From the NCBI GenBank assembly GCA_045599485.1, contig JAZRWA010000062.1, forward strand, positions 10,072 to 42,071: a stretch of DNA of 32,000 nucleotides, given 5' to 3'. The notes beneath the pieces are model-generated. The model saw only the letters and a program-made list of their open reading frames with translations, had not been told where the DNA came from and did not search any database. The position numbers and the translations under genes were made by a program. Positions 2 through 30,551 of the stretch are shown here, one piece after another; position 1 is the stretch's first letter, and each line of letters opens with the position of its first letter. The DNA comes from Clostridia bacterium. Lineage in GTDB: Bacteria > Bacillota > Clostridia > Christensenellales > Aristaeellaceae.

Positions 2-157
2 TCCCTGCGCGCGCTGCCCGGCTATGATGTTTCGGTCATTGCCGTGGCCTTTGGCGGCGGCGGGCACAAGCTGGCCTCCGGATGTCTGGTGAAGGATAGC
101 TTTGAAAACACCTCCGTACGCATGATGAGCATGATGGAGCAGGCGTTGAAGGCATGA
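2..157 (+). CDS. C-terminal end of a DHH/DHHA1-family phosphoesterase (NrnA-like), 5'-truncated by the window edge
   Basis: The frame starting at nt 2 reads SLRALPGYDVSVIAVAFGGGGHKLASGCLVKD...EQALKA, then TGA at 155-157. The FGGGGHxxAsG motif is typical of DHHA1 domains. The stop overlaps the truB ATG (ATGA). Confidence 0.5.
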   Translation, partial: SLRALPGYDVSVIAVAFGGGGHKLASGCLVKDSFENTSVRMMSMMEQALKA

Positions 158-1056
158 TGGACGGTTATATCAACGTGCTCAAGCCCCCGGGAATGTCCAG
201 CGGCGGCGTGGTGGGGCTTGTCAAGCATCTGACGGGCATGAAAGCCGGTCACGCGGGCACACTGGATCCCGAAGCCTGCGGCGTACTGCCGGTCATGGTG
301 GGGCGCGCTGCCCGATTGTTTGATTTTCTGGTGGAAAAGCGCAAGGTGTATCTGGCGGAGATCGCCTTTGGATACGCGACCGATACGCAGGACGCGCAGG
401 GCACCGCGATCGCGGAAGGGGAGAATTATCCCGATGCCGCAGCGGTCAAAGCCGTGCTGCCGATGTTCATCGGCGATATCCTGCAGCGTCCGCCCATGTA
501 TTCCGCGCTCAAGCAGAACGGCCGAACGCTGTATTCCCTGGCGCGTCAGGGCATTGAAGCGGAGATCGAACCGCGGCCCATCTTTGTGGAAAGCATCGAA
601 CTGCTGGAGGAAACACCGCGCCATGGTTTTCTGATGCGGATCACCTGCGGACGCGGCACCTACATCCGTACGTTGTGCCATGATATCGGGGCGGCGCTGA
701 ACTGCCCGGCGCACATGCGCTTTTTGCTGCGTGAGCAGACGGGCGCTTTTACGCTGGAGACGGCCTGTACGCCATAGGAGCTTCGTGAAGCGAAGGAAAA
801 CGGAACACTGGAGAGCCTCATCCTGGCCCCCGATGCACCGTTGGGGCATCTGCCCCGTATTGATGCTCGGGAGCGGCTGTGGAAGAAAGTCGTCAATGGT
901 GTGCCCTTGGGCAGAGAAGACTGGCAGGGGGATCAGGGTCCCGCGCGGTTATACTGCAAAGGCGCGTTTATTGGTGTGTGGGAAGCCGACGCCGAGGGCT
1001 TTTTGAAGCCCCGCGCGATTTTAAATACGGGAAAGGAAGTAAGCGGCAATGAATAA
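154..1056 (+). CDS. truB: tRNA pseudouridine(55) synthase TruB, 300 codons with one in-frame TAG at 775-777 (codon 208)
   Basis: N-terminal GYINVLKPPGMSSGGVV and the catalytic-Asp motif HAGTLDPEACGVLPV are present. ORF-track pieces 154-777 and 841-1056 share one frame, and the reading ...TLETACTP-TAG-ELREAKENGTLESLILAPDAPLGHLPRIDA... runs on without a frameshift. Real stop is TAA at 1054-1056. Summed length equals a normal TruB. Confidence 0.85.
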
Positions 1057-1888
1057 CACTCCCGAAATGGTGAACGGAATGTCCACCGAACAGATCAAGG
1101 CCATGTTGGCCAAGATCAAGTGTTTTATGCTGGACATGGACGGTACCTTCTATCTGGGCAACCAGATTCTGGAGGGCTCGCTGGATTTTCTGGATGCCTG
1201 TGAGGCAACCGGCCGCAGCGTGCTGTTTTTGACCAACAACTCCTCCAAATCCGCTGATTTTTATGAGAAGAAGCTGGAGCGCATGAATGTGCGCCCTGTT
1301 TTCCGCAACATTCTGACCAGCGGTCAGGCGGCGGCCCGCTACTGCAAGGCGGCTTTCCCTGGCAAAAAGGCGTTTCTGCTGGGCAACCACATCCTCAAGG
1401 CCGAAATGGACAAGATGGGCCTCGAGGTGGATAATGAGAACCCCGACTATGTGCTGATCGCCTACGATACCGAGCTGGACTATGCCAAGATGACGGCTGT
1501 GTGTGACTTTGTGCGTGCCGGTCTGCCCTATATTGCCACCCATCCCGATTACAACTGCCCCACCGAGACGGGCTTTGCGCCTGATATCGGTGCCATCATT
1601 GCCTTTATCAAGGCAAGCACCGGCCGTGAGCCCGAGCTGATCATCGGCAAGCCGTATTCCGGCATCGTCAAGGATGCCCTGCAGGTGACCGGCCTTCAGC
1701 CCGATGAGCTGGCCATGTGCGGCGACCGCCTGTACACCGACATTGCCACCGGTGTCAACTTTGGCATGACCAGCATTCTGGTCATGAGCGGCGAGACCAC
1801 CTGGGAGGATCGTGAAAAGAGCGAGATCAAGCCTCATCTGACCTTTGATCGCCTCAGCGCCATGATCCCCTATCTGGAAAAGATCTGA
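1049..1888 (+). CDS. HAD-superfamily subfamily IIA hydrolase (NagD/YutF-like sugar-phosphate phosphatase)
   Basis: Motifs FMLDMDGTFYLG (DxDG motif I), LFLTNNSSKS, and GKPY...MCGDRLYTDI (motifs III/IV). RBS AAAGGAAG lies upstream. The start overlaps the truB stop. TGA stop. Confidence 0.8.
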   Translation: MNNTPEMVNGMSTEQIKAMLAKIKCFMLDMDGTFYLGNQILEGSLDFLDACEATGRSVLFLTNNSSKSADFYEKKLERMNVRPVFRNILTSGQAAARYCKAAFPGKKAFLLGNHILKAEMDKMGLEVDNENPDYVLIAYDTELDYAKMTAVCDFVRAGLPYIATHPDYNCPTETGFAPDIGAIIAFIKASTGREPELIIGKPYSGIVKDALQVTGLQPDELAMCGDRLYTDIATGVNFGMTSILVMSGETTWEDREKSEIKPHLTFDRLSAMIPYLEKI

Positions 1889-1901
1889 AGCTGACCTGCA
1901 A

Positions 1902-1942
1902 GGCGCTTCGTTTTCCCCTGCGGAAACGGAGTGCCTTTTTTG
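1902..1942 (+). terminator. Intrinsic terminator after the HAD gene
   Basis: Imperfect GC-rich hairpin GGCGCTTCGTTTTCC / GGAAACGGAGTGCC followed by TTTTTTG. Confidence 0.5.
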
Positions 1943-1949
1943 TACGCGA

Positions 1950-2194
1950 ATATTATACATGGCGGAGGTCAAAGCGAACATGGCCCTGTATGGCCTCGTA
2001 TGGCCCTGCAGGTCAACAAACGGCATGCGTTTGATAACGGTCAGGGCATCGGCAAGCAAGGATGCACTGCCGACCATCATCCAATTGACTTCGTTGATGA
2101 CCGCAGAAGTACCGATGACGGAAATAGCAGTCTGACAGACCGTCTTCAAAGCACGAATGCCGGCACACTTCAACCACAGTTTCCAATTCTTCAT
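1950..2194 (-). pseudogene. Phage holin-like fragment; only the N-terminal part resembles holins
   Basis: The minus-strand ORF starts MKNWKLWLKCAGIRALKTVCQTAISVIGTSAVINEVNWMMVGSASLLA, which resembles the N-terminal TM segments of LL-H-type phage holins. Resemblance is lost after roughly 50 codons, and the ORF then runs by chance antisense through the HAD gene (track ORF 968-2194). The 3' limit is uncertain. Confidence 0.3.
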
Positions 2195-2225
2195 GTTTTA
2201 TTCTCCTTTCGTATTGATTGCAATT

Positions 2226-2286
2226 GCATATAAAAAGCACTGATTGTGATCAGTGCTGATTATTGATTGTGGCATATAAAAAGCAC
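2226..2286. repeat. Direct repeat of the 15-mer GCATATAAAAAGCAC (2226-2240 and 2272-2286), each copy leading into one of the two hairpins
   Basis: Exact 15/15 identity read directly from the sequence. Confidence 0.7.
2227..2257 (-). terminator. Intrinsic terminator (minus strand), distal copy of a tandem pair
   Basis: Perfect 9-bp stem AGCACTGAT / ATCAGTGCT with a 4-nt loop. On the minus strand it is followed by TTTTTATAT. Confidence 0.55.
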
Positions 2287-2305
2287 CATGCAAAATGCAT
2301 AGTGC
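2274..2305 (-). terminator. Intrinsic terminator (minus strand), proximal copy downstream of the small ORF
   Basis: 10-bp stem GCACCATGCA / TGCATAGTGC. Its single mismatch becomes a G-U pair only on the minus-strand RNA. It is followed on the minus strand by TTTTTATAT. Confidence 0.55.
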
Positions 2306-2330
2306 CTGATTCTGAATGCTGCTTGTTATA

Positions 2331-2564
2331 TCAAGCACATTCTTCTAACACGACATCTTTCAATTTTTCTCTTAATGGCACACCATCAATTTTGTACCTG
2401 TCAAGCATATCGTCTGCGGTGTCATAGTACCTTTCGTTTTCTGTGTTCCTTTCGCAAATCAACAATTGGTTATAACAGGTCATAACAATAAACTTAAAAT
2501 CGCCACAATGCATCATGATATCATCATGCTATTCGATAAGATCATTAAACTGTTTAATTGTCAT
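2331..2564 (-). CDS. Small hypothetical protein (77 codons) with an in-frame TAG at 2529-2531 (codon 12); positioned like an immunity gene after the MuF-type gene
   Basis: GAGGTG lies 9 nt upstream of the ATG at 2564-2562. The reading is MTIKQFNDLIE-TAG-HDDIMMHCGDFKFIV.... The track ORF start at 2516 has no Shine-Dalgarno sequence. TGA stop at 2331-2333. I recognise no family. Confidence 0.35.
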
Positions 2565-2618
2565 GATAGTTTTCACCTCTTTTGATGATATCCTGATTGT
2601 TCACAAGTTCCTGTTCCG

Positions 2619-3278
2619 TCAATGGCATTGGTACTCCATGCGGATTCCTTTTTTGGTGTTTATTTGGTGCTTGTGCGCTCCAGTTGTATGCTTTTGTGGC
2701 ATTCCATGATCACTTGTGTCAAAGTCAATGTAGGCGTATCCATCATTTCCGTAAACTCGTCTTTGAAGTACCTTCCCACCGTCATCAACTTTGTCAGTGA
2801 TAGAATCAGGATTGCTTTTGAAAGGTAAACCATTCATCAAATCTGAATTGTTTATTACCTGTCTTTCGTTAAGCATCATTCTGTATCCATCTTCTATTTT
2901 ACCACTTTTCCCAGTATTTTCAACGGTTTTTGTGGCATTCAGATACTTTTCACGGAACAATTCAAACTGATCAGATTTATCCAGTTGGAAATATTCCGCT
3001 TTGGCTTGCATCCGCTTCAGTTCGTCTTCATCCAATGCCCACTTTGCCCTGGTCAGCGCACAGCATCGACAGTTGATATCCTCGGAAGGAATGCCGAATT
3101 GAAAAGGATACTGCGCTTCCATACCTTCCACTTCAAACGGCTTGCCCTGGTCACGGATCTGACCGTCAAGCAGTCTGTGTGTGTAGCGTGTAGCACCGTC
3201 CATGGTGACATCCCATTCTTTGACGATATCGTGGCTGATTTGACTGCCGTTGACAAAACGAATAAACAGGGATATCAT
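2619..3278 (-). CDS. C-terminal portion of a MuF/SPP1-gp7-type phage head-morphogenesis protein with an uncharacterised C-terminal extension; N-terminally truncated relative to the family
   Basis: WDVTMDGATRYTHRLLDGQ...KPFEV...EDINCRCCAL matches the conserved core of the Mu F / gp7 family (W.t..D.r.R..H..l.G...F....NCRC). About 120 further residues follow, ending ...GYAYIDFDTSDHGMPQKHTTGAHKH.... An in-frame TAA sits immediately upstream of the ATG, so the normal N-terminal half is missing. TGA stop. Confidence 0.5.
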   Translation of the reverse strand: MISLFIRFVNGSQISHDIVKEWDVTMDGATRYTHRLLDGQIRDQGKPFEVEGMEAQYPFQFGIPSEDINCRCCALTRAKWALDEDELKRMQAKAEYFQLDKSDQFELFREKYLNATKTVENTGKSGKIEDGYRMMLNERQVINNSDLMNGLPFKSNPDSITDKVDDGGKVLQRRVYGNDGYAYIDFDTSDHGMPQKHTTGAHKHQINTKKGIRMEYQCH

Positions 3279-3326
3279 TTATCTTGGTACATTGTGCTGA
3301 TTTTTTGAAAAAACGGAGGCAAAACC

Positions 3327-3863
3327 ATGTCTGAAGTGTTTCATCCCATCTTTACCATTACGCTGGCGGACGGCTCGGTCATGAAGGGCGAGCTGTATCC
3401 CGAGATCGCCCCTGAAAGTGTGGGCAACTTTGTCGAGCTGGCCAACAAGGGCTTCTATGACGGCCTGATCTTCCACCGTGTTATCCCCGGCTTCATGATT
3501 CAGGGCGGCGACCCCGACGGCAACGGCACCGGCGGCCCCGGCTACAGCATCAAGGGTGAATTCCGCATGAACGGCGTGAAAAACGACCTGAAGCACACCC
3601 CCGGCGTGCTCTCGATGGCCCGCGCCATGCATCCCAATTCCGCCGGCAGCCAGTTCTTTATCATGACCAGCGTGAGCCCCCATCTGGATGGTCAGTATGC
3701 CGCGTTCGGTCTGGTCAAGGAAGGCGTGGAGCATGCCATGCGCATTGAAAAGGTGCGCCGCGACTATCGTGACTGCCCGATCGAGAAGCAGGCCATTGCC
3801 ACCATCCGTGTGGAGACCGAAGGCCACGAGTATCCCTTCAATAAGCTGAAAGGCCTGAGATAA
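3327..3863 (+). CDS. ppiB: Cyclophilin-type peptidyl-prolyl cis-trans isomerase
   Basis: FHRVIPGFMIQGGDP...GTGGPGY.I.GEF...H..GVLSMAR...NSAGSQFFI matches the cyclophilin signature. RBS ACGGAGG. TAA stop. Confidence 0.9.
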   Translation: MSEVFHPIFTITLADGSVMKGELYPEIAPESVGNFVELANKGFYDGLIFHRVIPGFMIQGGDPDGNGTGGPGYSIKGEFRMNGVKNDLKHTPGVLSMARAMHPNSAGSQFFIMTSVSPHLDGQYAAFGLVKEGVEHAMRIEKVRRDYRDCPIEKQAIATIRVETEGHEYPFNKLKGLR

Positions 3864-4114
3864 TGATCAATAACAATGCCATTTCCGTCCGCATCGGCGG
3901 ACGCGACATCAGCCTGAGCGGCAGCGATGAACCGGAAAAGCTGCGGCAGGCGGCTGCAGTCGTTGACCGCAAAATGCGTGAAATGATGGCAAACGGAAAG
4001 ACCCGCTGGGAAAGCGCAGCGCTGATGGCCGCGCTGATTCTGGCGCAGGAGGTTGCAGAGGCGCAGGAGGATAACACCCGTTTGCGCCGTATGCTGGATG
4101 AACATGCAAAATAA
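3863..4114 (+). CDS. zapA: Cell division protein ZapA
   Basis: 83 aa reading ISVRIGGRDISLSGSDEPEKLRQAAAVVDRKMREM...ALMAALILAQE, which is a ZapA-like pattern. The start overlaps the ppiB stop (TAATG). TAA stop. Confidence 0.65.
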   Translation: MINNNAISVRIGGRDISLSGSDEPEKLRQAAAVVDRKMREMMANGKTRWESAALMAALILAQEVAEAQEDNTRLRRMLDEHAK

Positions 4115-6413: not shown

Positions 6414-6506
6414 GAATGAATAAACAGTAAACAGTTTTTGAATAATGCCCCGGAATCATTGCAAAAACGGAAGCATCGGGGGTACACTCACAGGGAGGGC
6501 ACAAGG

Positions 6507-8873
6507 ATGATGACGGACCGGACGCTGCGCGTGCTGGAATTCAACAAGATCCTGCTTCGACTGGCGGAATCCGCCGTCACGGAGATGGGACGGGAAAAAT
6601 GTATGGCACTGCGCCCCACCGATAATCTGGCTCTGGCGGAGGATATGCTGCAGGAAACGGAGGAGGCACAGGTCATACTGACCTATCTGGGCGAAAGCCC
6701 GCTCATTCCTTTCAATGATGTGCGGCATTCCCTGACCATTGCCGGAAAGGGCGGTGTGCTGGGCATGAAGGCATTGCTGGACATTGCCCGGTGCCTGTCT
6801 GCCGCAAGAGCCGCCCGGACCGCCCTGGTGACGGAGCGGGAAAACACCCCGCATCTGACGCGTCTTGCCAGCAATCTGCAAACCTTCCGTATGCTGTAGG
6901 ATGCTATCAACGGTGCCATTATCAGCGAGGAAGAGATGTCCGACCATGCCAGCCCCGCGCTGGCGGATATCCGCCGTCACATCCGTCAGGCCAATGAACG
7001 TGTGCGTGAGAAGCTGAACAGCATGGTGCATGGCGGCGGTTTTTCCAAATACCTGCAGGAAAACATCGTAACCATGCGTGACGGCCGCTACTGCGTGCCC
7101 GTCAAGCAGGAATACCGGCAGATGGTGCCCGGTCTGGTGCATGACCAGAGCGCGACAGGCGCTACCATCTTTGTGGAACCCATGGCGGTGGTGGAGCTGG
7201 GCAACGACCTGAAGCAGTGGGCGGTCAAGGAAAAGGAAGAAATCACCCGCATCCTGGCTGAGCTTTCCGCCCGGGTGGGAGAGCAGAGCGAACTGATCGA
7301 AAACAATGTGGATCTGCTGGCCCGACTGGATTTTATCTTCTGCAAGGGTCATTTATCCCGGGAAATGCGCGGTGTGCTGCCGCACATGAACCGCGAAGGA
7401 AGGGTCAGGCTGGTGCGGGCAAGGCATCCGCTGATCGATCCCGAAAAGGTCGTGCCCTGCGATCTGTGGATGGGACAGGATTTTACCACCCTCATCATTA
7501 CCGGTCCCAATACGGGCGGCAAAACGGTTACGCTTAAAACGGTGGGTCTGCTGAGCCTGATGGCGCAGGCAGGCTTGCATGTGCCGGCTGATCTTGGTAC
7601 CGAGCTGGCGGTCTTTGGACAGATCTTTGCCGATATCGGCGACGAACAGAGCATTGAGCAATCCCTGTCCACCTTCTCCTCCCACATGAAGAACATTGTC
7701 GATATTCTCTCCAATGTGGAGCAGAACGATCTGGTGCTGTTTGACGAGCTGGGAGCGGGCACAGATCCCACCGAAGGCGCGGCGCTGGCGCAGACCATTC
7801 TGGATACCCTGCTGAAGCGCGGCATCCGCACAGTGGCGACCACGCATTACAGCGAGCTCAAGGCGTACGCCCTTTCCACCCCCGGTGCTGAAAACGCCAG
7901 TGTGGAGTTTGACGTCAGCACGCTTCGCCCCACGTACAAGCTGTCCATCGGTGTACCGGGCAAATCCAATGCCTTTGAGATCAGCCGCAAGCTGGGCTTG
8001 AGCGCGGGCATTATCGAGCGGGCGAAGGAGCTGCTTTCCGCCAATGATGTGCGCTTTGAGGATGTCATAGCCGGTGCCGAATACCAGCGTCAGGTGGCAG
8101 CCAAAGAGCGGGAAGCGGCGGAAAAGGCGAGGGCGGAAGCGATCCATCTGCGGCAGGAGGCCGAGCGGCTGTACCGCGAAACGGAAGAAAAGCATCAGCA
8201 CGCCGAAAAGAAGGCCAAGGAAGAAGCACGGCGCATTGTTGAGAAGGCGCGCCGGGAAGCGGAAGAAGTGATCGGCGAGTTGAAAAATATGAAAAAAGAA
8301 GGCGCCGCGGGGCGTGAGGGTGATATCAACCGCCTGCGCCGCCGTATGCAGGACAGCGCCGACAGCGTAGCGGAGGGCATCCAGGGCACGCAGACCCTGA
8401 CACAGGCCCCCAAGACGCTGAACGTGGGGGACACCGTGGATATTCTGCACCTCAACACCCGCGGCACCGTGCTGAGCAAGCCCGACGCCAACGGCGATGT
8501 GCAGGTGCAGGCGGGCATTCTCAAGCTGAAGGCCAACCTGAGCCAGCTGCGTCCTGTGCAGGAAAAAAAGAGCGAAGTCAAAAAGAAAAAAAGTGCTGTC
8601 ATGGTGCACACGGGCACTGCAAGCCGCACTGTACACATGGAGTGCGATGTGCGCGGCATGAGCCTTTAGGAAGCGCTGATGGAAGTGGACCAGTACCTGG
8701 ACGAAGCCATTCTGGCGGGTCTTGGTGAGGTGGGTATCGTCCATGGCAAAGGCATGGGCGTGCTGCGCAGCGGTATCCAGCGGCATTTGAAAATGAATCC
8801 GCAGGTCCGCTCCTTCCGCCTGGGTCAGTACGGTGAGGGCGAGGACGGCGTGACCATTGTGACCCTGAAATAA
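6507..8873 (+). CDS. mutS2: Endonuclease MutS2 (788 codons) with two in-frame TAGs at 6897-6899 (codon 131) and 8667-8669 (codon 721)
   Basis: RBS GGGAGGG lies upstream of the ATG at 6507. Walker [31 protein letters not shown] and TTHYSELK are present, followed by a charged coiled-coil and a C-terminal Smr domain ([17 protein letters not shown]). Track pieces 6438-6899, 6936-8669 and 8679-8873 all share one frame. TAA stop. Confidence 0.88.
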
Positions 8874-8894
8874 TATCGAGCGGAGGCAAATGCG

Positions 8895-9587
8895 ATGACG
8901 AATGAAAAAAGCTTTATCATGGTTGTGGATGATGACCCCAACATTGCGGGCCTTGTGGAGTTGTGCCTGAAAAAAGAGGGCTACGAGGTACAGACCTATA
9001 ACCGCGGTGATACCGCGATGGAAGCATTTCGTCAGAATCCGCCGCAGATGATGATCCTGGATATCATGATGCCCGGAATGGACGGCTGGCAGGTCTGCCG
9101 GTCGGTGCGTCAGATCTCGCAGATCCCCATTATCATGCTGACTGCCAAGGGGGAGACCTTTGACAAGGTGCTGGGGCTGGAACTCGGCGCGGATGACTAC
9201 ATCACCAAGCCCTTTGACAACAAGGAGCTGGCCGCCCGTGTCAAGGCGGTGCTGCGCCGTACGATGCCGAGCGAGGGGGAAAAGAATACCCTCTCCTTCC
9301 CGGGTCTGACGGTGAGCCTGGAAAAGTACGAGGTTTATTATCAAGGGCATGCGGTCGATATGCCGCCCAAGGAGCTGGAGGTATTGTACTTCCTGGCTTC
9401 CCATCAGAACCGCGTGTTTACGCGTGAACAGCTTTTGGAGCAGGTGTGGGGCTTTGACTTTTTCGGCGACAGCCGCACGGTGGATGTGCACATCAAGCGC
9501 TTGAGGGAAAAACTGATCGGCTGCGAGGAATATGGCTGGCAGATCCGCACGGTGTGGAGCGTCGGCTACAAATTTGAAGTGAAATGA
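8895..9587 (+). CDS. OmpR/PhoB-family response regulator
   Basis: Receiver domain (VVDDDP...ILDIMMPGMDG...LTAKG) plus a winged-helix output domain (LSFPGLTV...ELEVLYFLASHQNRVFTREQLL...VDVHIKRLREKL...IRTVWSVGYKF). RBS GGAGG. TGA stop. Confidence 0.9.
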   Translation: MTNEKSFIMVVDDDPNIAGLVELCLKKEGYEVQTYNRGDTAMEAFRQNPPQMMILDIMMPGMDGWQVCRSVRQISQIPIIMLTAKGETFDKVLGLELGADDYITKPFDNKELAARVKAVLRRTMPSEGEKNTLSFPGLTVSLEKYEVYYQGHAVDMPPKELEVLYFLASHQNRVFTREQLLEQVWGFDFFGDSRTVDVHIKRLREKLIGCEEYGWQIRTVWSVGYKFEVK

Positions 9588-11059
9588 AAAAACGATGGAG
9601 CGGCATGTATGCGCGGCTGATGACCATGGTGCTGGCAGTGATCCTGGTATGTGTCCTGTCCCTGGTCAGCATCTTCTGGTTTGCTTCGCGCAACAACTAT
9701 ATTTCCACCCGCATGGAAGAGCTGAAGGTGCAGGCGTATGACCTGGCCTATATGGCCAGCCGTGTGCGCAACAACACGGTGGCGGAAAACTTTATGCACG
9801 TCAGCACAACGGCGGATTATATCAAATGGAAGGTCAACCGCATCTACAACGACTTTTCCGCTTACGCTGTGGTGGTGGACCGCACAGGGCAGACCACAGT
9901 GTACATCACCCCGGACATGCTTGAGACCGAAATGGTCGATTTTGACCGGGAACTGGTGGTCAGTACGCTGCGTCAGGTGTTGACCGGGCAGGAGATCGTG
10001 ACCAGCGTCCAGAGCGAATCGGGTCCCATGTTTACGGTGGCGGTTCCATGGATCGATAACGGCACGGTGCTGGGCGCTGTATTTGTACAGACCGCGGCAC
10101 AGACGGTTTACAGCGGCTTTCATTCCCTCATCTGGCAGGTCGTGCTGGCGGCGTTGATCGTGATGATCTGTTCGGCGCTGGTGGTGCTGCTCATCACACG
10201 ACCCATGATCCGCCCGCTCAAGCAGATGGCGGCGGTTTCCCGCGAGATGGCGGAGGGACGCTTCGGCCGCCGTGTTCCCGAAAGCGGCAGCCTGGAGACC
10301 CGGGAACTGGCACATGCCTTCAATATCATGGCTACGCAGCTGGATGAGCTGGAGCAGACGCGCAAGGATTTTATCGCCAATGTATCGCATGAGCTGCGCT
10401 CGCCCATGACCAGCATACAGGGTTACCTGCAGTGCATGGCGGACGGCACCATCGACCGCGAGGAACAGGGACGGTACATGCAGATCGTGCTGGACGAGAC
10501 CAAACGGCTTTCCCGTCTGGTGGGCAACCTGCTGAACCTGTCCCGCATGGAAAACGGCACCACTGAACTGGCGTTGAGCGATTTTGACATTCACGAAAGC
10601 ATTCGACGCGTGATCATTGCCAATATGACCCAGCTGGATGAAAAGAACATGGAGCCGGAGCTGACCTTTGGCGGCGAACCGCTCTATGCCCATGCCGATG
10701 CCGAGCAGATCTATCAGGTGCTGACCAACCTCCTCAGCAATGCCGTCAAGTATACGCAGGAGGGCGGCAAGATCACCTTGGGTACCCGTGTGGAGGACAA
10801 GCTGATCCATGTAACGGTGGCGGATAACGGACCGGGCATTGCACCATAGGATGCCCCGCACATTTTTGACCGCTTCTATAAGGCGGACAAGGCTCATACG
10901 GTGGGCAAGGGTACCGGTCTGGGGCTGGCCATCTGCAAATGCATCATGGACAAGCATGGTCATCAGCTGCGGCTGCTCCCCTCGGACCGGGGCAGCGTGT
11001 TTGAATTTACTTTGGATCTGGGAAAGGAGCCGCCGCGGCACATTGAAAATGAAGCTTGA
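9584..11059 (+). CDS. Sensor histidine kinase (TM, HAMP, HisKA, HATPase_c; 491 codons) with an in-frame TAG at 10847-10849 (codon 422)
   Basis: H-box [16 protein letters not shown] and N-box LLSNAVKYT are present, followed by [46 protein letters not shown] (G1, F and G2 boxes continue in frame after the TAG). The start overlaps the regulator's stop (ATGA). True stop is TGA at 11057-11059. Confidence 0.85.
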
Positions 11060-11894
11060 GGCAAAAGCCAAAATCAACTGGTCGCTGGAGGTGACCGGAC
11101 GCCGGGAGGATGGCTATCATCTGCTGGACATGGTCATGCAGAGCGTGACGCTGTCCGATACGCTGACCGCGGAGGATGCGGAAACGCTGAGCCTGACGCT
11201 GAGCGGTTCGGACACGGTGGCGGCGGATGATAACAATCTGGTGCTGCGTGCGGCGCGCCGCCTGAAGGAGTTTGCGGGCGTGCGGCACGGGGCGGCGTTG
11301 ACGCTGGTCAAGCGCATCCCGGCCGGAGCCGGTCTGGGCGGCGGCAGCGCGGATGCGGCGGCGGCATTGAAAATGCTGAATCAATTGTGGCAGCTGCATT
11401 TGCCGCTTGAAACGCTGCAGCAGCTGGCGCTGCCGTTGGGGGCGGATATTCCGTTTTGCCTGCAGGGCGGTCTGTGCCGTGTGCAGGGCATTGGGGAGAC
11501 ACTGACGCCCATCGGGGGACAGCGTACCTATCCGTTGGTGCTTTTGCAGCCGAAGGAAGCCTTGAGCACAGCGGATGTGTTCCGTGAATCGGATGCGATG
11601 CCTTTGGTACACGGAGATACGGCGGGGGTGTTGCAGGCGATCGACGCGGGGGATATGCAGCTGCTTGAAAAAAGCTCGGTCAACTCGCTGCAGGGCGCGG
11701 CCATGCGGCTGGTGCCCGTCCTTGCTGCGGCGCAGACGGATCTGATTGCGCATGGAGCGTTGTTTGCGCGCATGACGGGCAGCGGCAGCGTCACCTTTGG
11801 TGTGTTTGACAGCGCAGCGGCAGCCGACCGGGCGGCGGAAGCGCTGCGGGTCAAGTGGCCGGTTGTGCTCAGAACGGAGACCTGCTATGAGTGA
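11049..11894 (+). CDS. ispE: 4-diphosphocytidyl-2-C-methyl-D-erythritol kinase
   Basis: [33 protein letters not shown]...[18 protein letters not shown] (GHMP kinase motif). The start overlaps the extended kinase ORF by 11 nt. TGA stop. Confidence 0.85.
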
Positions 11895-21842: not shown

Positions 21843-21937
21843 CTCCGAGGCGTATTATATAGCTTTCAAAGCGTGATCGGCTGAATTTTTATTGTATTTG
21901 TTTGGTACAGCGAATCGGGGAGAGGGTCGCGCTCAAG

Positions 21938-21966
21938 TTGACACGGGTCGGTGAATAGCGTATACT
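21938..21966 (+). promoter_or_regulatory. Sigma-70-type promoter for the VanY-type gene
   Basis: TTGACA (21938-21943), a 17-nt spacer, then TATACT (21961-21966). Confidence 0.55.
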
Positions 21967-21997
21967 GAAAATGCCATGAATGGCTGAAGGAGCGTAT

Positions 21998-23302
21998 ATG
22001 AAACGAAAGGGCGGCATTTCCCCGGTGGGATTGATGGTCATTATCATTCTGATCGTACTGATCATTGTCTTTTTTGCGGCGGCATGGGAAAACCATGCCC
22101 GCTATCAAAAGGAAGCGGCGGTGACACCGACGCCTTCCATCACGCCGCGTACTGTTCGCATTACGGAAGACCCGGCGTATCCGACCTCCACCCCCACGCC
22201 GTGCGTGCTGCAGGTGAATTCGGTTGGCATTGAGGTAAAACAATTGCAGGAGCGGCTGAAGGAGCTGGAGTATTATACCGGCACGGTGGACGGTCAGTAC
22301 GGAAACGGCACCAAAGCCGCCGTCAAGGCTTTTCAGGAGCAGCACAGGCTGACAGCTGACGGCATCGCCGGCGATAAGACGATCGCTCTGCTGTATTCGG
22401 CTTCCGCGCAGGTGTTTGTGCCTACGCCCACTCCTTCGCCTACGCCCGCGCTTTTGTCCAACGGCAGCAATGGCGAGGAAGTCAAAATGCTGCAGGAGCG
22501 CCTGAAGGTGCTGGGGTATTATTCCGGCACGGTGGACGGTGCCTTTGGCAGCGGTACCAAGGCGGCGGTGAAGCTTTTCCAGCAGCAAAACGGCCTTGAG
22601 GCGGACGGCGTGGCGGGCCAGAAAACGCTGGCGCTGTTGTATTCCGACGCCGCCAAACATGTAACGATCACCCCCACCCCGGAACTGATCCAGGTGCTGA
22701 ACGGTTCTGTGCCGATGCTGGTCAACAAGCAGCATACGGTGGCCAAGGATTTTGTACCGGCAGACCTGGTGGATATGAGCGCTTATTGCCCGTCTTCGCT
22801 GGTCAAGATCAAATACAGCGGCACCAAGGGTCAGCGGGATGCCGTGAATGCCCTGGTGTTTATGCTGCAGGCGGCAGCGGCGGACGGCATCACCAACTGG
22901 CAGGTGAGCGCGGCGTACCGCAGCTATGCCGATCAGCAAAGCATGATGGATTCCAAAATTCGCTCCTATATGGAGAACAACAACATGTCCCGCTCGCAGG
23001 CGGCCAGCGCTGCCAGCCGTACGGTGGCGCAGCCGGGCGCCAGTGAGCACCACACCGGTCTGGCTTTTGACATGACGGTGCCCAATACCAGCACCTTCCT
23101 TGGCACCAAGCAGTGCACCTGGCTGCATCAGCACTGCTGGGAATACGGCTTCATCATCCGCTATACCGAATAGAAAAAGGATATTACGGGTTTTGAGGCG
23201 GAGGCGTGGCACATCCGCTATGTGGGCAAGGAACACAGTGAGAATATCCGCAGGCTGAACATGTGCCTGGAGGAATATGTGGACTTCCTGAACAAAAAAT
23301 AA
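21998..23302 (+). CDS. Membrane-anchored D-Ala-D-Ala carboxypeptidase (VanY / peptidase M15B) with two PG_binding_1 repeats; 434 codons with an in-frame TAG at 23171-23173 (codon 392)
   Basis: TM anchor ISPVGLMVIIILIVLIIVFF. The repeat G..V..LQERLK.LGYY.G.VDG.FG.GTK.AV..FQ occurs twice. M15B motifs AAYRSYADQ and SEHHTGLAFD are present, followed by GFIIRYTE-TAG-KKDITGFEAEAWHIRYVG (the ExxH motif lies after the TAG, in the same frame). RBS GAAGGAG. TAA stop at 23300-23302. Confidence 0.82.
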
Positions 23303-23321
23303 GAAAAGGGGCGTTGGATTT

Positions 23322-24089: not shown

Positions 24090-24094
24090 GTTTT

Positions 24095-24127
24095 CGCCCG
24101 AAGGTGTAAAACCCTCGGGCTTTTTTG
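24095..24127 (+). terminator. Intrinsic terminator after the esterase gene
   Basis: GCCCGAAGG / CCCTCGGGC stem (one mismatch) followed by TTTTTT. Confidence 0.6.
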
Positions 24128-24173
24128 ATGCGGTCCGATGCCGAAAAAAAGAAGAAAATATGATTGATTTTTC

Positions 24174-24202
24174 TTGCACTTTCATTGGTTTTGTGCTATA
24201 AA
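24174..24202 (+). promoter_or_regulatory. Sigma-70-type promoter (extended -10) for the MATE gene
   Basis: TTGCAC (24174-24179), a 17-nt spacer ending in TGC, then TATAAA (24197-24202). Confidence 0.5.
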
Positions 24203-24244
24203 CATTCGGAACCATTTTCCAAATCGATTTTCGGAGCTTTTTTC

Positions 24245-25606
24245 ATGGCGAGAACAAGTGTACGGGAGATGACTGACGGCTCCCCGATGAAGCTGGTACT
24301 GGGCTTCGCGGCGCCGCTGCTCTTTGGTTTTTTATTTCAGCAGCTGTATGCCATTGTGGATACAGCCATTGTGGGACGGTATCTTGGCGCCGATATGCTG
24401 GCGGCGGTGGGCGGAACCGGCTCGGTCAACTTTCTGATCAACGGCTTTACCATGGGCTGCTGCTCGGGCTTTGCCATTCCGATCGCCCAGACCTTTGGCG
24501 CAAGGGATCATACCTCCATGCGCCGTTATGTGGCCAACGCGGTCTATGTCTGTGCTGTGATTTCGATTCTGATGTCGGTCAGCACGGCGCTGCTTTGTAC
24601 GGATATCCTGCGGCTGATGAACACACCGGAGGAGATCCTGTACAATTCCGCGGCCTACATCCGCATCATTTTTGCCGGCATTCCCGCGACCATGCTGTAT
24701 AACATGGCGGCCGGTGTGCTGCGGTCGCTTGGAGACAGCAAAACGCCCGTGATGTTTTTGATCCTGGCTTCTCTGGTCAACATTGCGCTGGACCTGCTGT
24801 TTATTATCGTATTTCAGATGGGGGTGGCCGGCGCTGCCATTGCGACCATCATCAGTCAGCTGATCTCCGGCGCGGGCTGTGTGGCGGTGATGGTGCGCTC
24901 CTTCGCGATTCTGCGTATGAATGCCGAGGACCGTCAATTCCGTGCGGAGTACGGAAAAAAGCTGCTGCTGGTGGGTGCTCCGATGGGCTTGCAGTATTCC
25001 ATCACGGCCATCGGTTCGGTGGCCATTCAGTGGGCGGTAAACGGCATTGGCGTTACCGCGGTGGCCGCTGTGGCGGCAGCCGGCAAGCTGACCAACTTTT
25101 TTGCCTGTGTTTTTGACGCGCTGGCGACCACCATGGCCACCTTTGCCGGGCAGAATGTGGGAGCAAGGAAACTGGACCGTGTCGGCAAAGGCTTGTGGGC
25201 AGCCTCGATCATCGGGGTTGTATATTGCCTGCTGGCGCTGCTGGTGGTGCTGTTCTTTGGTCCCGCGCTGATTGGATTGTTTGTGGACGGCGCCGAAAAC
25301 GCGGAGGTCGTCCGCCTGGCACAGCAGTTTTTGACCTGGAACGCCTCTGCTTTTGTGCTGCTGCTGTTTGTCAACATTGTTCGACTGACGGTACAGGGCA
25401 TGGGCTTTACGCAGGCAGCGATGATTGCCGGTGTTTTCGAAATGTTTGCCCGTCTGGCGGTGGCAATGCTGCTGGTGCCGGCTTTGGGCTTTAACGGGGC
25501 CTGTATGGCCAATGTGGCGGCCTGGGTGGCGGCGGACGCTTTCCTGTTCCCATGCTATTTCCGTGTGCTGAAAAAGCTGAAGCTGCGTCAGGCAGCGGCT
25601 CTGTAA
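24245..25606 (+). CDS. MATE-family efflux transporter
   Basis: PMKLVLGFAAPLLFGFLFQQLYAIVDTAIVGRYLG is a typical MATE N-terminus, and about 12 hydrophobic segments follow. The start was chosen at MARTSVREM. TAA stop. Confidence 0.85.
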   Translation: MARTSVREMTDGSPMKLVLGFAAPLLFGFLFQQLYAIVDTAIVGRYLGADMLAAVGGTGSVNFLINGFTMGCCSGFAIPIAQTFGARDHTSMRRYVANAVYVCAVISILMSVSTALLCTDILRLMNTPEEILYNSAAYIRIIFAGIPATMLYNMAAGVLRSLGDSKTPVMFLILASLVNIALDLLFIIVFQMGVAGAAIATIISQLISGAGCVAVMVRSFAILRMNAEDRQFRAEYGKKLLLVGAPMGLQYSITAIGSVAIQWAVNGIGVTAVAAVAAAGKLTNFFACVFDALATTMATFAGQNVGARKLDRVGKGLWAASIIGVVYCLLALLVVLFFGPALIGLFVDGAENAEVVRLAQQFLTWNASAFVLLLFVNIVRLTVQGMGFTQAAMIAGVFEMFARLAVAMLLVPALGFNGACMANVAAWVAADAFLFPCYFRVLKKLKLRQAAAL

Positions 25607-25622
25607 GAAAGGAAATGACACG

Positions 25623-26357: not shown

Positions 26358-26365
26358 GCATTAAT

Positions 26366-26404
26366 AAACGGACAGACTCCAAGATCGGAGCTGTCCGTTT
26401 TTGT
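26366..26404. terminator. Bidirectional terminator between the convergent thioesterase and ROK genes
   Basis: ACGGACAGACTCC / GGAGCTGTCCGT stem flanked by an A-run and TTTTTG. Confidence 0.6.
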
Positions 26405-27298
26405 TTATTCCACTGCCAAGGCCTGCTTTGCCAGCAGGAAGGCGCCCATGACGCCGCTGTGGATGCCCAGACCGGGGGCGGTGATGTAGTCGTCAAGCTG
26501 TTCATTCAGCGCGGGGGAGACGATGTAGCGGTTGAGGAGGGCGTTGGTTTTGCTGCGGATCATGGGCAGCAGGAAGCTTTGCTGCATGACACCGCCGCCG
26601 AGGATGATCTTTTCCGGGGAGAAGCAGCAGATGGCATTGACGCACATCTGCGCGAGGTAGGTGCTTTCGATCTCCCAGCTGAGGTGCTCCTGCGGCAGTT
26701 CTTTGGCCGGCACCCCCCAGCGCTTTTGCAGCGCGGGACCGGAAGCCAGCCCCTCCAGACAGCCTGTGTGGTAGGGGCAGAAGCCCTTGGGAGTGGGGTC
26801 ACGGGGATCGGGCTGCAGCAGCATGTGCCCCAGTTCGGGATGCACCAGCCCGTGTACCGGCTGACCGTGGATGATGAGGCCGCCGCCGATGCCGGTGCCC
26901 ACCGTGACATACAGGCAGGAGGAAAGACCTTTGGCGGCGCCGAGACGGGCCTCCGCCAGCGCTGCGGCGTTGACATCGGTATCAATGACGGTGGGAATGC
27001 CCAAAGCATCACGGAAGGTGGATAACAGCGGCACATTCTGCCAGCCCGGCTTGGGCGTGGCGGTAATGGAGCCGTAGGCGGGGGAGGAAGGCTGCAGGTC
27101 CAGCGGACCGAAGCAGCCGATCCCCAGGGAAGCGATGTTCCGTTGACGGAACCAGTCGATCATTTCCGGCAGTGTTTCTTCCGGGGAGCGGGTAGGCAGC
27201 ACGGTTCTTTCAATCAGTTCGCCGGCGTCATTGACGACGCTCAGCACCATTTTGGTGCCGCCGGCTTCCAGAGCGCCGTAAAGGGGAGAAAAAGCCAT
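26405..27298 (-). CDS. ROK-family sugar kinase (fructokinase/glucokinase-like)
   Basis: YGALEAGGTKMV is a ROK/Mak-type N-terminal ATP motif. Also present: VIDTDVNAAALAE, VTVGTGIGGGLI, and the zinc motif HPELGHM...C.YH..CLE. RBS AAGAGG lies 5 nt upstream of the ATG at 27298. TAA stop. Confidence 0.8.
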   Translation of the reverse strand: MAFSPLYGALEAGGTKMVLSVVNDAGELIERTVLPTRSPEETLPEMIDWFRQRNIASLGIGCFGPLDLQPSSPAYGSITATPKPGWQNVPLLSTFRDALGIPTVIDTDVNAAALAEARLGAAKGLSSCLYVTVGTGIGGGLIIHGQPVHGLVHPELGHMLLQPDPRDPTPKGFCPYHTGCLEGLASGPALQKRWGVPAKELPQEHLSWEIESTYLAQMCVNAICCFSPEKIILGGGVMQQSFLLPMIRSKTNALLNRYIVSPALNEQLDDYITAPGLGIHSGVMGAFLLAKQALAVE

Positions 27299-27337
27299 AA
27301 AGACCTCTTTTCCGCAGCAAACGCTGCGCTTTTTTGC

Positions 27338-27366
27338 TTGCAAGGCAATGAAAACGGTTGTATACT
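27338..27366 (+). promoter_or_regulatory. Sigma-70-type promoter for the YczE-like gene
   Basis: TTGCAA (27338-27343), a 17-nt spacer, then TATACT (27361-27366). Confidence 0.5.
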
Positions 27367-27396
27367 GTCACCCGGAAGATAAACCGGGAGGCAGGC

Positions 27397-28017: not shown

Positions 28018-28039
28018 CCCGATGGATATTGTAACATAA

Positions 28040-28078
28040 CAAAACCGCCGGAGTAAATTCTCCGGCGGTATTTTCTTG
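28040..28078. terminator. Bidirectional terminator between convergent genes
   Basis: ACCGCCGGAG / CTCCGGCGGT is a 10-bp stem with AAAA on the 5' side and ATTTTCTT on the 3' side. Confidence 0.6.
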
Positions 28079-28080
28079 CA

Positions 28081-29310
28081 TTAATCCCTGGGGAGGCTTT
28101 GCATGTAAGCGTCCATGGAGGCCGCGACCACCTTGGAGCGTTCCACTGCTTCCACAACGGTGCGGGCGCCGCTGACGACGTCGCCGCTGGCGAATACGCC
28201 TTCACGGGTGGTGGCACCGTTTTCGTCGGCGACCAGCAGACCGCGGGCGTTTGCCTGCAGACCGTTGGTGCTGTTGACAAGACGGCTTCTCGGCCCCTGG
28301 GAGATGGAGATGATGGTGCTGTCGGCAGCGTACAGGATGGGCTCGGTGCCGTCGGAAACGGTCTTGCCGTTTTCGTCCTCCATGGTGCCCTGGAAGATGA
28401 CACCTTCATCCACGATGCGGACGGGCATGCGGTTGAAGACAAATTCGACCCCTTCCAGTTTGGCGTAATCGACCTCGCTCTTGCTGGCGGTCACGTGCTG
28501 GGAACGGGAGAACACACGCACATGCTGTACGCCCTTGCGGATGGCGGTACGGGCCACGTCCATGGCGGCGTTGCCGGCGCCAATGATGTTGAGGGTTTTG
28601 CCCAGGTTGTAGCTGTCGGGGTTGTTGAGGTAGTTGATGCCAAAGTGGACGTTGCCCAGCGTTTCACCGGGAATGTGCAGGGCATTGGGCTGCCATACGC
28701 CGGAACCGATGAACACGGCCTTGTAGCCATCGCGGAACATATCCTCGATGCTGATGGAAAGACCAATGCTGGTGTTGGGACGCACGCGGATGCCCTTGAG
28801 CACCAGATGATGATATTCAAACTCATCAATGACCGATTTGGGCAGACGGAACTCGGGAATGCCGTAGCGCAGCACGCCGCCGATCTTGTCCTTGCCTTCA
28901 AAGATGGTGACCTGATAGCCCTTGCGCGCCAGTTCTACGGCGATGGTCAGACCCGCGGGACCGCTGCCGATGATGGCTACCCGCATCCCGTTGGAGGGGG
29001 CGGGGCCATCGGTATTCTTGGTGGTGTAGGTGGTGGAAATATAGTTTTCGATCATGGAAAAGTGCACCGGCTGCCCCTTGCGGCCCAGCACGCAGTGACC
29101 TTCGCATTGATTCTCATGGTTGCAGACCACGGAGCAGATGACGCTGAGCGGATTGTTTTCAAACAGCATGCGGCCGGCGTCGTCGATCTTGCCGTCCAGC
29201 AGCATGCGGATCACGGTGGGAATATTGGTGTGGATGGGACAGCCCTTCTGGCACTGCGGTACTTTGCAGTTCAGACACCGCTGGGCTTCCTCCAGAACAT
29301 GAATCGCCAT
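28081..29310 (-). CDS. NAD(P)H-dependent FAD/Fe-S oxidoreductase of the GltD / SudA / NfnB (glutamate synthase small-chain-like) family
   Basis: N-terminal Cys clusters (CLNCKVPQCQKGCP, CSVVCNHENQCEGHC) and two Rossmann motifs (VAIIGSGPAGL and LNIIGAGNAAMD). RBS AAGGAG. TAA stop. Confidence 0.8.
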   Translation of the reverse strand: MAIHVLEEAQRCLNCKVPQCQKGCPIHTNIPTVIRMLLDGKIDDAGRMLFENNPLSVICSVVCNHENQCEGHCVLGRKGQPVHFSMIENYISTTYTTKNTDGPAPSNGMRVAIIGSGPAGLTIAVELARKGYQVTIFEGKDKIGGVLRYGIPEFRLPKSVIDEFEYHHLVLKGIRVRPNTSIGLSISIEDMFRDGYKAVFIGSGVWQPNALHIPGETLGNVHFGINYLNNPDSYNLGKTLNIIGAGNAAMDVARTAIRKGVQHVRVFSRSQHVTASKSEVDYAKLEGVEFVFNRMPVRIVDEGVIFQGTMEDENGKTVSDGTEPILYAADSTIISISQGPRSRLVNSTNGLQANARGLLVADENGATTREGVFASGDVVSGARTVVEAVERSKVVAASMDAYMQSLPRD

Positions 29311-29371
29311 GAAAAAATCTCCTTGTCAATCGTTGGGGATAGAATGTTTCATATTAATTATAACTGTTTTA

Positions 29372-29410
29372 GAATAAAAAACAAAGTGTCCGAAGCGGAT
29401 CGGACACTTT
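29372..29410 (-). terminator. Intrinsic terminator (minus strand) after the M42 peptidase gene
   Basis: 11-bp stem AAAGTGTCCGA / TCGGACACTTT with a 6-nt loop, followed on the minus strand by GTTTTTTATTC. Confidence 0.6.
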
Positions 29411-29468
29411 GCCTGTAAAGAAAAAAGCCGTATATGTTTCAAAAACTGAAACGGAATGGAAAACGGTG

Positions 29469-30551
29469 TCAGAAAGATGCAATGATCTCCGGCGTCATCG
29501 AGCGGACGACTGCTTCCGCCAGCTGAACGGAGGACTCAAAATCCTAAAGGGTACAGATGCCGTTCATGGAGTGGATGTAGCGTACCGGCACACCGGCGAC
29601 TACGGAAGGAATGCCCTCCAGCGCAGTATTGATGACGGCAGCGTCATTGCCGCCGCCCTCGCGGACAGAATCCTGCGCCTTGATCCCCTTCTATGCGGCC
29701 AAATCGAGCACATAACGCTGGTAGCGCGGGGAACAGATGACCGATACATCCATGTGCCGCAGCATGGGGCCGCGGCGCAGGGCGGTTTGAATGGCGTAGG
29801 ACGGGGTAAAGGTATCATCCGCCGGACAGCCCTCAAACACATAGGCGAGGTTGGGACGAACATGATTGACCGATACGCGGGCGCCTCTTTCGCCAACCTC
29901 TTCCTGGGCGGAAAGCACACCGACCACATCACAGGGCAGGTCGGCCCCTTTCAGCCTTTCCAGCGTTTCCAGCAGCGCGGCGACGCCGATGCGGCAGTCA
30001 AAGGCTTTGCCAAACAGCAGGCCTTTGCGGGTATCGGCCTGAAAACGGGAGGCGGGCACACCGGGCTCACCGATGCGGATGTGGAAATCACGGATAGCCT
30101 CCTCCCGGCTGGTGGCGCCGATATCGATGACAAAGGACGAGATCTCCGGAACGCCGCCGCTCTTTTCCGCGGCGGTCTGAAAATGCACCGGCTTGGCGGC
30201 GATGACACCGGGCAGGTATTCGCCCAGAGCGTTGCGCACCAATACATCCGCGGAGGAGAGCGCCAGGGGGCTGAAGCGGCCCAAAGTGACAAAACGGAGC
30301 GTGCCGTTTTCGTGGATGGAGTGGATCATGAATCCCACTTCATCGCTGTGCGCGTCCAGCATGATGACCGGACGGTTCCCGGTGTTTTCATTGCGGTGGA
30401 TATACAGATTGCGCATGCAGTCTTCTTCAATGGGACCGATATCATGGGCAAGCTCACGGGCGACAGTGAGTACATCGTCCTAAAAACCGGAAGGACCGAA
30501 AGCGTTGGAAAGTTTTTCAATCATTTTCAGCTGTTGTTCAATGCTGCGCAT
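29469..30551 (-). CDS. M42-family metallo-aminopeptidase (glutamyl aminopeptidase / endoglucanase-like); 360 codons with three in-frame TAGs at 30480-30482, 29691-29693 and 29544-29546 (codons 24, 287, 336)
   Basis: RBS GAGGTG. The reading is MRSIEQQLKMIEKLSNAFGPSGF-TAG-DDVLTVARELA...VIMLDAHSDEVGFMI...SAQEEVGERGA...VLDLAA-TAG-KGIKAQDSVREGGGNDAAVI...VPVRYIHSMNGICTL-TAG-DFESSVQLAEAVV...SF, then TGA at 29469-29471. It is all one frame. HSDE, QEEVG and GG.NDA are the family metal or active-site motifs. Confidence 0.85.

Follow-up and report, generated by a model that had tools for sequence, protein, structure and literature searches.

The window, a 32,000-nucleotide stretch of a metagenome-assembled genome (MAG) from an uncultured, Christensenellales-like lineage of gut Clostridia (GC ~57%), holds 27 complete genes. 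Nine in-frame TAG codons lie among them, eight in five conserved, full-length housekeeping genes (truB, mutS2, a histidine kinase or HK, a VanY-type carboxypeptidase and an M42 peptidase) and one in a small ORF within an inserted, low-GC, phage-derived islet (Table 1). The original prediction had listed these nine codons, and all are present and in frame. Code-11 fragments of the TAG-bearing genes are on record from a 44,352-bp NCBI contig, so the TAGs belong to the deposited assembly.

Table 1. Features of the window, their in-frame TAG codons, the state of the same codons in other genomes, and further sites that are TAG elsewhere in the lineage.
Feature	Coordinates	Strand	Codons	In-frame TAG in window (codon)	Same codon in other genomes	Site that is TAG elsewhere (codon)
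truB	154..1056	+	300	775-777 (208)	GAG or GAA in relatives	733-735 (194): GAG in window, TAG in Logan contig L093
phage-derived islet	2006-3246
small islet ORF	2331..2564	-	77	2529-2531 (12)
mutS2	6507..8873	+	788	6897-6899 (131); 8667-8669 (721)	131: GAG in sister MAG, TAG in L094 and L095; 721: GAG in sister MAG, TAG in L096 and L097
histidine kinase (HK)	9584..11059	+	491	10847-10849 (422)	TAG kept in three genomes	9923-9925 (114): GAG in window, TAG in L082 and L096
ispE (GHMP kinase)	11040..11894	+				11106-11108 (23) and 11172-11174 (45): GAG in window, TAG in sister MAG; 45 also TAG in L096
VanY-type carboxypeptidase	21980..23302	+		23171-23173 (392, numbered from ATG at 21998)	GAG in L084 and L086
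MATE efflux gene	24164..25606	+				24629-24631 (ORF codon 156): GAG in window and L084, TAG in L086
ROK kinase	26405..27343	-				27038-27040 (102): CAG in window, L084 and L086, TAG in ENA contig L001
M42 peptidase	29469..30551	-	360	30480-30482 (24); 29691-29693 (287); 29544-29546 (336)	24: GAG or GAA; 287: AAG; 336: GAG or TAG (lineage partners)

Family-typical sequence continues past the TAGs, as had been predicted, with Pfam or PHROG profiles running across the sites. The TruB_N and TruB_C_2 profiles (residues 28-224) take in truB codon 208; the Smr profile (714-788) crosses codon 721 of mutS2, which retains intact MutS_V, MSSS and Smr domains; the HATPase_c profile (372-479) spans the kinase TAG, the VanY profile (285-417) spans that of the carboxypeptidase, which also has two PG_binding_1 domains, and the Peptidase_M42 profile (50-344) covers codons 287 and 336. 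Codon 131 of mutS2 is upstream of the MutS_V match, yet inside the homologue alignments, and codon 24 of the M42 peptidase is covered by full-length homologues. In the islet ORF, residues 1-73 of 77 match phrog_3711 and the TAG falls within conserved sequence; a tblastn search of this ORF against phage genomes gave no match. The islet TAG is less certain than the other eight, since an ATG at codon 17 would yield a 61-aa ORF that lacks it.

The TAG-bearing lineage is seen in the window MAG, GCA_024404275.1, ERZ27247129, SRR27361835, ERR6929691 and SRR21150872, and independent assemblies from at least five samples other than that of the window repeat some of the window TAGs and add private ones. 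Common to independent assemblies are MutS2-131, MutS2-721 and HK-422 (three assemblies each) and HK-114, IspE-45 and M42-336 (two each), while TruB-194, IspE-23, MATE-156, ROK-102 and a TAG in a TPR-like gene are private to other lineage genomes. The pattern is thus coherent within a clade and reproduced across assemblies, as a stop-codon reassignment would be. The sharing of TAGs by genomes that differ at ~35% of their synonymous sites implies that these codons have been stably inherited by vertical descent over a long time. The nearest relatives (75-78% MutS2 identity) have no in-frame TAG in the compared region, and in our reading of these sequences the UAG-sense trait appears restricted to one shallow clade, at about the level of a genus, within the Christensenellales-like Clostridia. 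One further locus, L085 (GCA_017435345.1), has no TAG in its six genes, too few to class it as recoded or not. We also screened 80 MutS2 loci for spanning TAGs. A first automated version was swamped by conserved antisense frames; after frame selection, the cases outside the lineage were almost all TAG terminators read through to the next gene, or antisense ORFs, and we therefore claim no recoding for the wider order.

The window genes end in TAA (16 of 27) or TGA (11), and none ends in TAG. The original prediction had noted that TAG never terminates, which holds here, but it counted 28 gene ends rather than 27 and gave the absence more weight than it can bear. Among Christensenellales-like relatives TAG makes up only 13 of 366 stops (3.6%), and against this background zero in 27 is not significant alone (P = 0.38); because relatives so seldom terminate at TAG, its absence is weak evidence by itself. 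Across the lineage loci, every TAG "stop" called by gene finders is one of the in-frame sites above, and no genuine TAG terminator occurs in ~35 distinct lineage genes.

The residue at these positions is consistent. Thirteen sites vary within the lineage, and at 11 of them the genomes that lack TAG have GAG or GAA instead (P = 1.6e-6 under a codon-usage null); the two other partners are AAG at M42-287 and CAG at ROK-102. Homologue columns point the same way: glutamate occupies M42 codon 24 in 119/119 sequences and mutS2 codon 131 in 72/78, is the commonest residue at HK codon 422 (E 33, Q 6, D 5 of 49), M42 codon 287 (E 51, K 21, R 16) and mutS2 codon 721 (E 43, D 34 of 80), and is the residue of E. 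coli TruB aligned with truB codon 208. The VanY site is D or N in PDB homologues, and the column at M42 codon 336 varies, with most distant homologues having residues other than Glu. In a column likelihood over 10 sites, Glu is ahead of all other amino acids, leading Asp and Gln by 28 ln units and Lys by 35. Judged from these alignments, the amino acid encoded by UAG is almost certainly glutamate. TAG accounts for 1.3% of Glu codons. Eight sites at GAG-type positions have become TAG, while 304 GAA codons have given no TAA (P = 0.0017). We consider it very probable that this lineage uses UAG as a sense codon for glutamate.

Searches for the decoding machinery covered the window and the loci related to it. 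By ARAGORN, neither the window nor the lineage loci contain a tRNA, and 53 related loci have none with a CUA anticodon; the window also has no Rfam match and no pylT or pylSBCD cluster. A pattern that links a T-loop to a Glu-type anticodon arm with CUA, CGCCCTCTAACGGCGN{9,10}GTTCRA, gave six matches in JGI metagenomes, none of which ARAGORN called a tRNA and whose base compositions differ. A GGQ-motif scan detected no release factor, prfA included, encoded in the loci examined.

Several other explanations deserve weighing. Gene decay through nonsense mutation and errors of sequencing or assembly are effectively refuted as sources of the TAGs. The genomes are indeed MAGs, and one Logan contig of the lineage (L086) holds a true M42 pseudogene, but that gene has a frameshift, a TAA and raised pN/pS, whereas the 25 non-islet window genes, as had been claimed for the whole window, show no in-frame TAA or TGA and no frameshift or other indel in 9,210 codons: TAG stands alone. 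The neutral evolution after the TAG that the original prediction said would count against it is not what we see, since pN/pS past the first TAG is 0.10, against 0.11 before it, indicating purifying selection beyond the codon. Nor does assembly error, the other objection it raised, fit identical TAGs in independent assemblies from different samples. A base-calling artefact at a methylation motif was likewise rejected, since the surroundings of the TAGs share no DNA motif or other context and the TAGs recur in independent short-read assemblies. The mixed lesions, relaxed selection and lack of reproducibility typical of pseudogenes and assembly errors are thus absent, and recurrence, selection, the TAG-only pattern and the contrast with a real pseudogene all support the claim that UAG is translated, whether by reassignment or by constitutive suppression. 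That UAG is translated as something else, be it Lys, pyrrolysine, the Gln of phage code 15 or several residues inserted by near-cognate tRNAs, we regard as very unlikely. The CAG and AAG partners of ROK-102 and M42-287 would fit it, as would the prokaryote-associated precedents, in which UAG became Gln or Pyl; but GAG or GAA is the partner at the 11 other variable sites, CAG appearing at a single site even though C-to-T is the easier mutation, and this reading is also opposed by the invariant or nearly invariant Glu columns, by the likelihood deficits of Gln and Lys, and by the location of the TAGs in housekeeping genes rather than in methylamine methyltransferases.

The chance is slimmer still that the suppressor tRNA belongs to a resident prophage or mobile element, and not to the core genome, with the host having drifted into dependence on it. 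Amber suppressor tRNAs are common in gut phages, and the window's own phage-derived islet has a small ORF with a TAG. Against this, known phage suppressors insert Gln and not Glu, TAGs are shared by genomes as far apart at synonymous sites as those above, the islet is missing from the sister locus L083 and the sister MAG nonetheless has TAGs of its own, and no viral contig matched the Glu-type CUA anticodon-arm pattern. More room, although still a minor share of the probability, is left for an ambiguous intermediate, in which RF1 is kept, an efficient Glu-inserting suppressor tRNA competes with termination, TAG is tolerated only in favourable contexts and some genes elsewhere stop at TAG. The scarcity of TAG among Glu codons fits such a state, and TAG density differs between sister genomes (~0.9 versus ~0.5 per 1,000 codons). 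The flanking bases are biased too: the base before TAG is never C (0/15) and is A or T at 11/15 sites (P = 5e-4), and the base after it is a purine at 13/15 (P = 0.02). Amber suppression in E. coli works better when a purine follows the codon, and the bias may mean that decoding competes with termination, so that reassignment is possibly incomplete. However, three TAGs in one gene and two in another would need highly efficient read-through, the lack of a genuine TAG terminator extends over all of the distinct lineage genes surveyed, and the missing C may instead reflect a general avoidance of CTAG.

Our preferred account, which we hold to be probable though with less assurance than the decoding of UAG itself, is a new UAG = Glu table in a free-living genus of normal GC, apparently caught early, in which a tRNA(CUA) derived from tRNA-Glu is charged by the resident non-discriminating GluRS and RF1 has been lost. 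The starting state would be that of the wider clade, with TAG terminators nearly absent (3.6%), which would make this a reassignment of the codon-capture type. The lineage would carry a tRNA with a CUA anticodon charged with Glu, most simply a duplicated tRNA-Glu(CUC) with a C36-to-A change; most Bacillota possess a non-discriminating GluRS that tolerates variation at anticodon position 36. With RF1 gone or inactive, UAA and UGA would both fall to RF2, and new TAGs would arise by synonymous G-to-T change of GAG. The low share of TAG among Glu codons suggests a codon that is young or weakly decoded. At ~1% of Glu codons, TAG is still switching with GAG between strains.

In the literature we searched, all known bacterial stop reassignments are said to involve UGA, UAG recoding is described only for phages (as Gln) and for Pyl-using organisms, and we found no report of UAG reassignment in a bacterial chromosome; the original prediction's statement that bacterial reassignments do not include chromosomal UAG agrees with this. 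The bacterial UGA codes are table 4 (UGA = Trp, in Mycoplasmatales, insect endosymbionts and some Eggerthellaceae) and table 25 (UGA = Gly, in Gracilibacteria and Absconditabacteria). Like them, the present case would be a genome-wide change from stop to sense on a bacterial chromosome, made visible by stops that lie in frame within conserved genes, and its expected basis is the same, a new tRNA anticodon and loss of the matching release factor after the stop codon had become rare. It differs from them in its codon, UAG in place of UGA, and hence in the factor that could be dispensed with, RF1 in place of RF2; its amino acid, Glu, and the ordinary GC content of the host (~57%) set it apart as well. 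Some archaea, with a genome-wide UAG = pyrrolysine code, and Pyl-using bacteria resemble this lineage in treating UAG as sense in a prokaryotic chromosome and in having few TAG terminators. Pyrrolysine decoding, however, would place UAG in methylamine methyltransferases, where no standard residue is conserved at the matching positions; here it lies in housekeeping genes, at positions aligned with Glu and not with Pyl or Lys-like residues.

Phage code 15, of crAss-like and other gut phages, likewise makes the amber codon sense in the gut and uses a suppressor tRNA. It is a viral system, switched on during infection of standard-code hosts, and inserts Gln, whereas the recoded genes here are chromosomal (truB, mutS2 and ispE among them), the residue is Glu, and CAG is the partner of TAG at only 1/13 sites. 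The nuclear code of peritrich ciliates (NCBI table 30) reads UAA and UAG as Glu. That code also reassigns a stop to glutamate, but it is eukaryotic and takes UAA as well, the codon that terminates most of the window genes. Engineered RF1-free E. coli (C321.deltaA and related recoded strains) offer a further likeness, in that UAG there is non-terminating and can be assigned to a tRNA(CUA); those strains are man-made, and the present lineage would be their counterpart in nature, where TAG has started to refill the genes.

Annotation under code 11 fragments about one third of the genes seen here, and such gene splitting introduces errors into the protein databases and into the MAG quality estimates of the lineage. 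The responsible tRNA and synthetase pair may find use in genetic-code engineering, and the finding raises the question of how TAG-using or TAG-avoiding phages fare on such a host. If true, this would be the first case in which a bacterial chromosome has reassigned the amber codon naturally, and the engineered RF1-free strains would have an analogue in nature: chromosomal UAG = Glu would add a new bacterial genetic code and would show that RF1 is dispensable in nature. Because TAG and GAG switch between strains, this young, polymorphic case would also allow the codon-capture and ambiguous-intermediate models of genetic code change to be tested directly against each other.

Translating the window with TAG kept open places nine in-frame TAGs in six true-frame ORFs, at the same positions from which the original prediction had argued that this organism translates UAG. 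The setting is ordinary: at ~57% GC, the window carries a Bacillota housekeeping and transport gene set (truB, HAD phosphatase, cyclophilin, zapA, U32 peptidase, mutS2, a response regulator and histidine kinase pair, ispE, trmO, an oligopeptide ABC system, VanY carboxypeptidase, MATE pump, ROK kinase, M42 peptidase and RNase Y). Pfam profiles for TruB, the MutS2 Smr domain, the kinase HATPase_c domain, VanY and Peptidase_M42 cover TAGs. In the 77-codon ORF of the low-GC islet, a phrog_3711 match over residues 1-73 puts the codon-12 TAG within conserved sequence as well, but an internal ATG makes this site less certain. The claimed absence of other nonsense codons holds for the 25 non-islet genes, with no in-frame TAA or TGA in 9,210 codons. 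The islet itself is a ~47% GC insertion that the sister MAG locus (L083) lacks, and looks like what is left of a phage module for a MuF polymorphic toxin and its immunity.

The 27 complete window genes end in TAA (16) or TGA (11). That TAG never serves as a terminator here is thus correct as an observation, yet it carries little statistical weight (P = 0.38) because TAG is rare as a terminator in the wider group, at 13 of 366 stops in apparently standard-code Christensenellales-like loci (L002-L050); more distant Clostridia (L051-L081) use it at 29 of 189. On the window's plus strand, the trinucleotide TAG occurs 54 times and its complement CTA 157 times; since this strand holds most genes, TAG is depleted in all coding-strand frames.

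The window TAGs are not artefacts. Products on record from the 44,352-bp NCBI contig, translated with the standard bacterial code 11, are fragments (TruB, 207 aa; MutS2, 130, 577 and 64 aa; M42 peptidase, 241 aa), so the TAGs are present in the deposited assembly. No common sequence context was found around the window sites. Several of these TAGs recur in independent assemblies of close relatives with 87-92% nucleotide identity to the window (see table), and at TruB-194, HK-114 (histidine kinase), IspE-23, IspE-45, MATE-156, ROK-102 and one site in a TPR-like gene, sense codons of the window are replaced by TAG in these relatives. Each gene-caller 'TAG stop' in the lineage loci is one of the in-frame sites just named. 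The window-to-relative codon table also shows that TAG sharing is not tree-like: the MutS2 TAGs of the window recur among Logan and ENA strains and are absent from the sister MAG, and those at HK-114 and IspE-45 are common to the sister MAG and SRR27361835 but not the window. This pattern suggests recombination or repeated flips between GAG and TAG.

In-frame TAG sites and other features of the window and related loci
Site or feature	Position	Strand	TAG also in	Homologues outside lineage, or description
TruB-208	codon 208			aligned residue in E. coli TruB: E
MutS2-131	codon 131		ENA ERZ27247129, Logan ERR6929691	E 72/78
MutS2-721	codon 721		Logan SRR27361835, SRR21150872	E 43/80, D 34/80
HK-422	codon 422		GCA_024404275.1, SRR27361835	E 33/49, Q 6/49, D 5/49
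IspE-45	codon 45			E 7/12
VanY site				solved structures: D or N; close relatives: GAG
M42-24	codon 24			E 119/119
M42-336	codon 336		GCA_024404275.1	
Islet	2006-3246			low-GC insertion
77-codon ORF	within islet			PHROG family 3711
MuF-type head-morphogenesis C-terminus	2619-3278 (within islet)	minus		truncated, toxin-like tail
M42 orthologue, L086 (Logan SRR27361835)	9274-10330			pseudogene
Divergent region, L085 (GCA_017435345.1)	600-10362			UDP-glucose dehydrogenase, polysaccharide deacetylases, PilZ-containing glycosyltransferase

Post-TAG segments were checked for neutral evolution by comparing the window with relatives codon by codon. Downstream of the first TAG pN/pS is 0.10 (3,690 codon pairs), versus 0.11 upstream (1,934 pairs); judged from these sequence comparisons, the TAG-bearing genes are functional. 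About 35% of synonymous sites differ between window and relatives, so TAGs common to several genomes are of long standing. Real decay in the lineage looks different from the TAG-only pattern: the M42 pseudogene on L086, an internal control, has lost one base at codon 13, contains a TAA at codon 234 and shows raised pN/pS. Nor can G-to-T mutation account for the TAGs, as 304 GAA and 64 GGA codons in the window offer targets for conversion to TAA and TGA and none has been converted (P = 0.0017). Recurrence, pN/pS and the TAG-only pattern thus bear out the original reading of translation rather than decay or error, and TAG is almost certainly translated in this lineage.

The data sharpen that reading to glutamate. 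At 13 lineage sites TAG alternates with a sense codon, and the partner is GAG or GAA at 11, AAG (Lys) at M42-287 and CAG (Gln) at ROK-102; given that GAG contributes 21% among the eight sense codons a single step away from TAG, at least 11 Glu partners has P = 1.6e-6 under this codon-usage null. By a simple likelihood calculated on ten alignment columns, Glu leads Asp and Gln by 28 ln units and Lys by 35. A Gln reading fits worse: CAG to TAG is the easier transition, so many such pairs would be expected where only one is seen, and positions of invariant Glu should be free of TAG, yet M42-24 is one. Pyrrolysine or Lys fits worse still. We therefore consider it very probable that the lineage reads TAG as Glu.

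How UAG would be decoded can be outlined. Reading UAG requires a tRNA with anticodon CUA, which a copy of tRNA-Glu(CUC) can acquire by a single change at position 36; such a copy is our candidate UAG reader. Most Bacillota lack GlnRS and have a non-discriminating GluRS that accepts C36 and G36, and this enzyme could plausibly charge the A36 variant. The residue would stay Glu if that tRNA is no GatCAB substrate. With three TAGs in one gene and two in another, reading would need to be efficient, so RF1 would be gone or disabled, leaving UAA and UGA to RF2. Alternatively, reassignment may be incomplete, with UAG decoding still competing with termination. TAG makes up only 1.3% of Glu codons, and at 15 sense TAG sites (window, ENA contig L001, L082, and Logan contigs L086 and L093) C never precedes the TAG, A or T does so in 11 (P = 5e-4), and a purine follows it in 13 (P = 0.02). 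This bias may reflect CTAG avoidance plus tRNA context preference, or residual competition with termination. No tRNA gene was found in the window or lineage loci and no release-factor gene in any retrieved locus, and scanning for the pattern of a Glu-type anticodon arm with CUA yielded nothing useful. Six JGI metagenome contigs (L087-L092), unrelated to the UAG lineage, carry what resembles the 3' half of a tRNA, in which a CUA-reading anticodon arm of Glu type occurs together with a T-arm and a CCA end (CGCCCTCTAACGGCG...GGTTCGAGTCC...GCCA); ARAGORN makes no tRNA call there, and an identical stretch is common to four of them. We judge the full mechanism, a Glu-type CUA tRNA with RF1 gone or disabled, moderately probable.

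In GTDB, the relatives of this MutS2 come from Christensenellales-like MAGs, among them RUG genomes, Candidatus Limiplasma, Pullichristensenella and Christensenella. The nearest relatives outside the lineage, with full-length MutS2 75-78% identical, show no homology-spanned TAG in ~36 kb, so the trait characterises a shallow clade at about the level of a genus. Six genes of the more distant relative L085, a small sample, contain no TAG. In L085 the gene set after the ABC transporter gene differs, and synteny with the window breaks there.

Peritrich ciliates read UAG as Glu, jointly with UAA; here, by contrast, TAA remains a terminator. Known bacterial stop reassignments in the literature searched all involve UGA, prokaryote code-prediction tools cover tables 4, 11 and 25, and genome-wide UAG decoding is mentioned only for archaea, as pyrrolysine; UAG as Gln is a phage trait. 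That literature held no report of bacterial UAG or Glu reassignment. As far as it reaches, the lineage has probably undergone stop-codon reassignment, an established type of event, in a UAG/Glu form new for bacteria. The rarity of TAG terminators in the wider group supplies the precondition for codon-capture reassignment, and may have predisposed Christensenellales-like genomes to RF1 loss.
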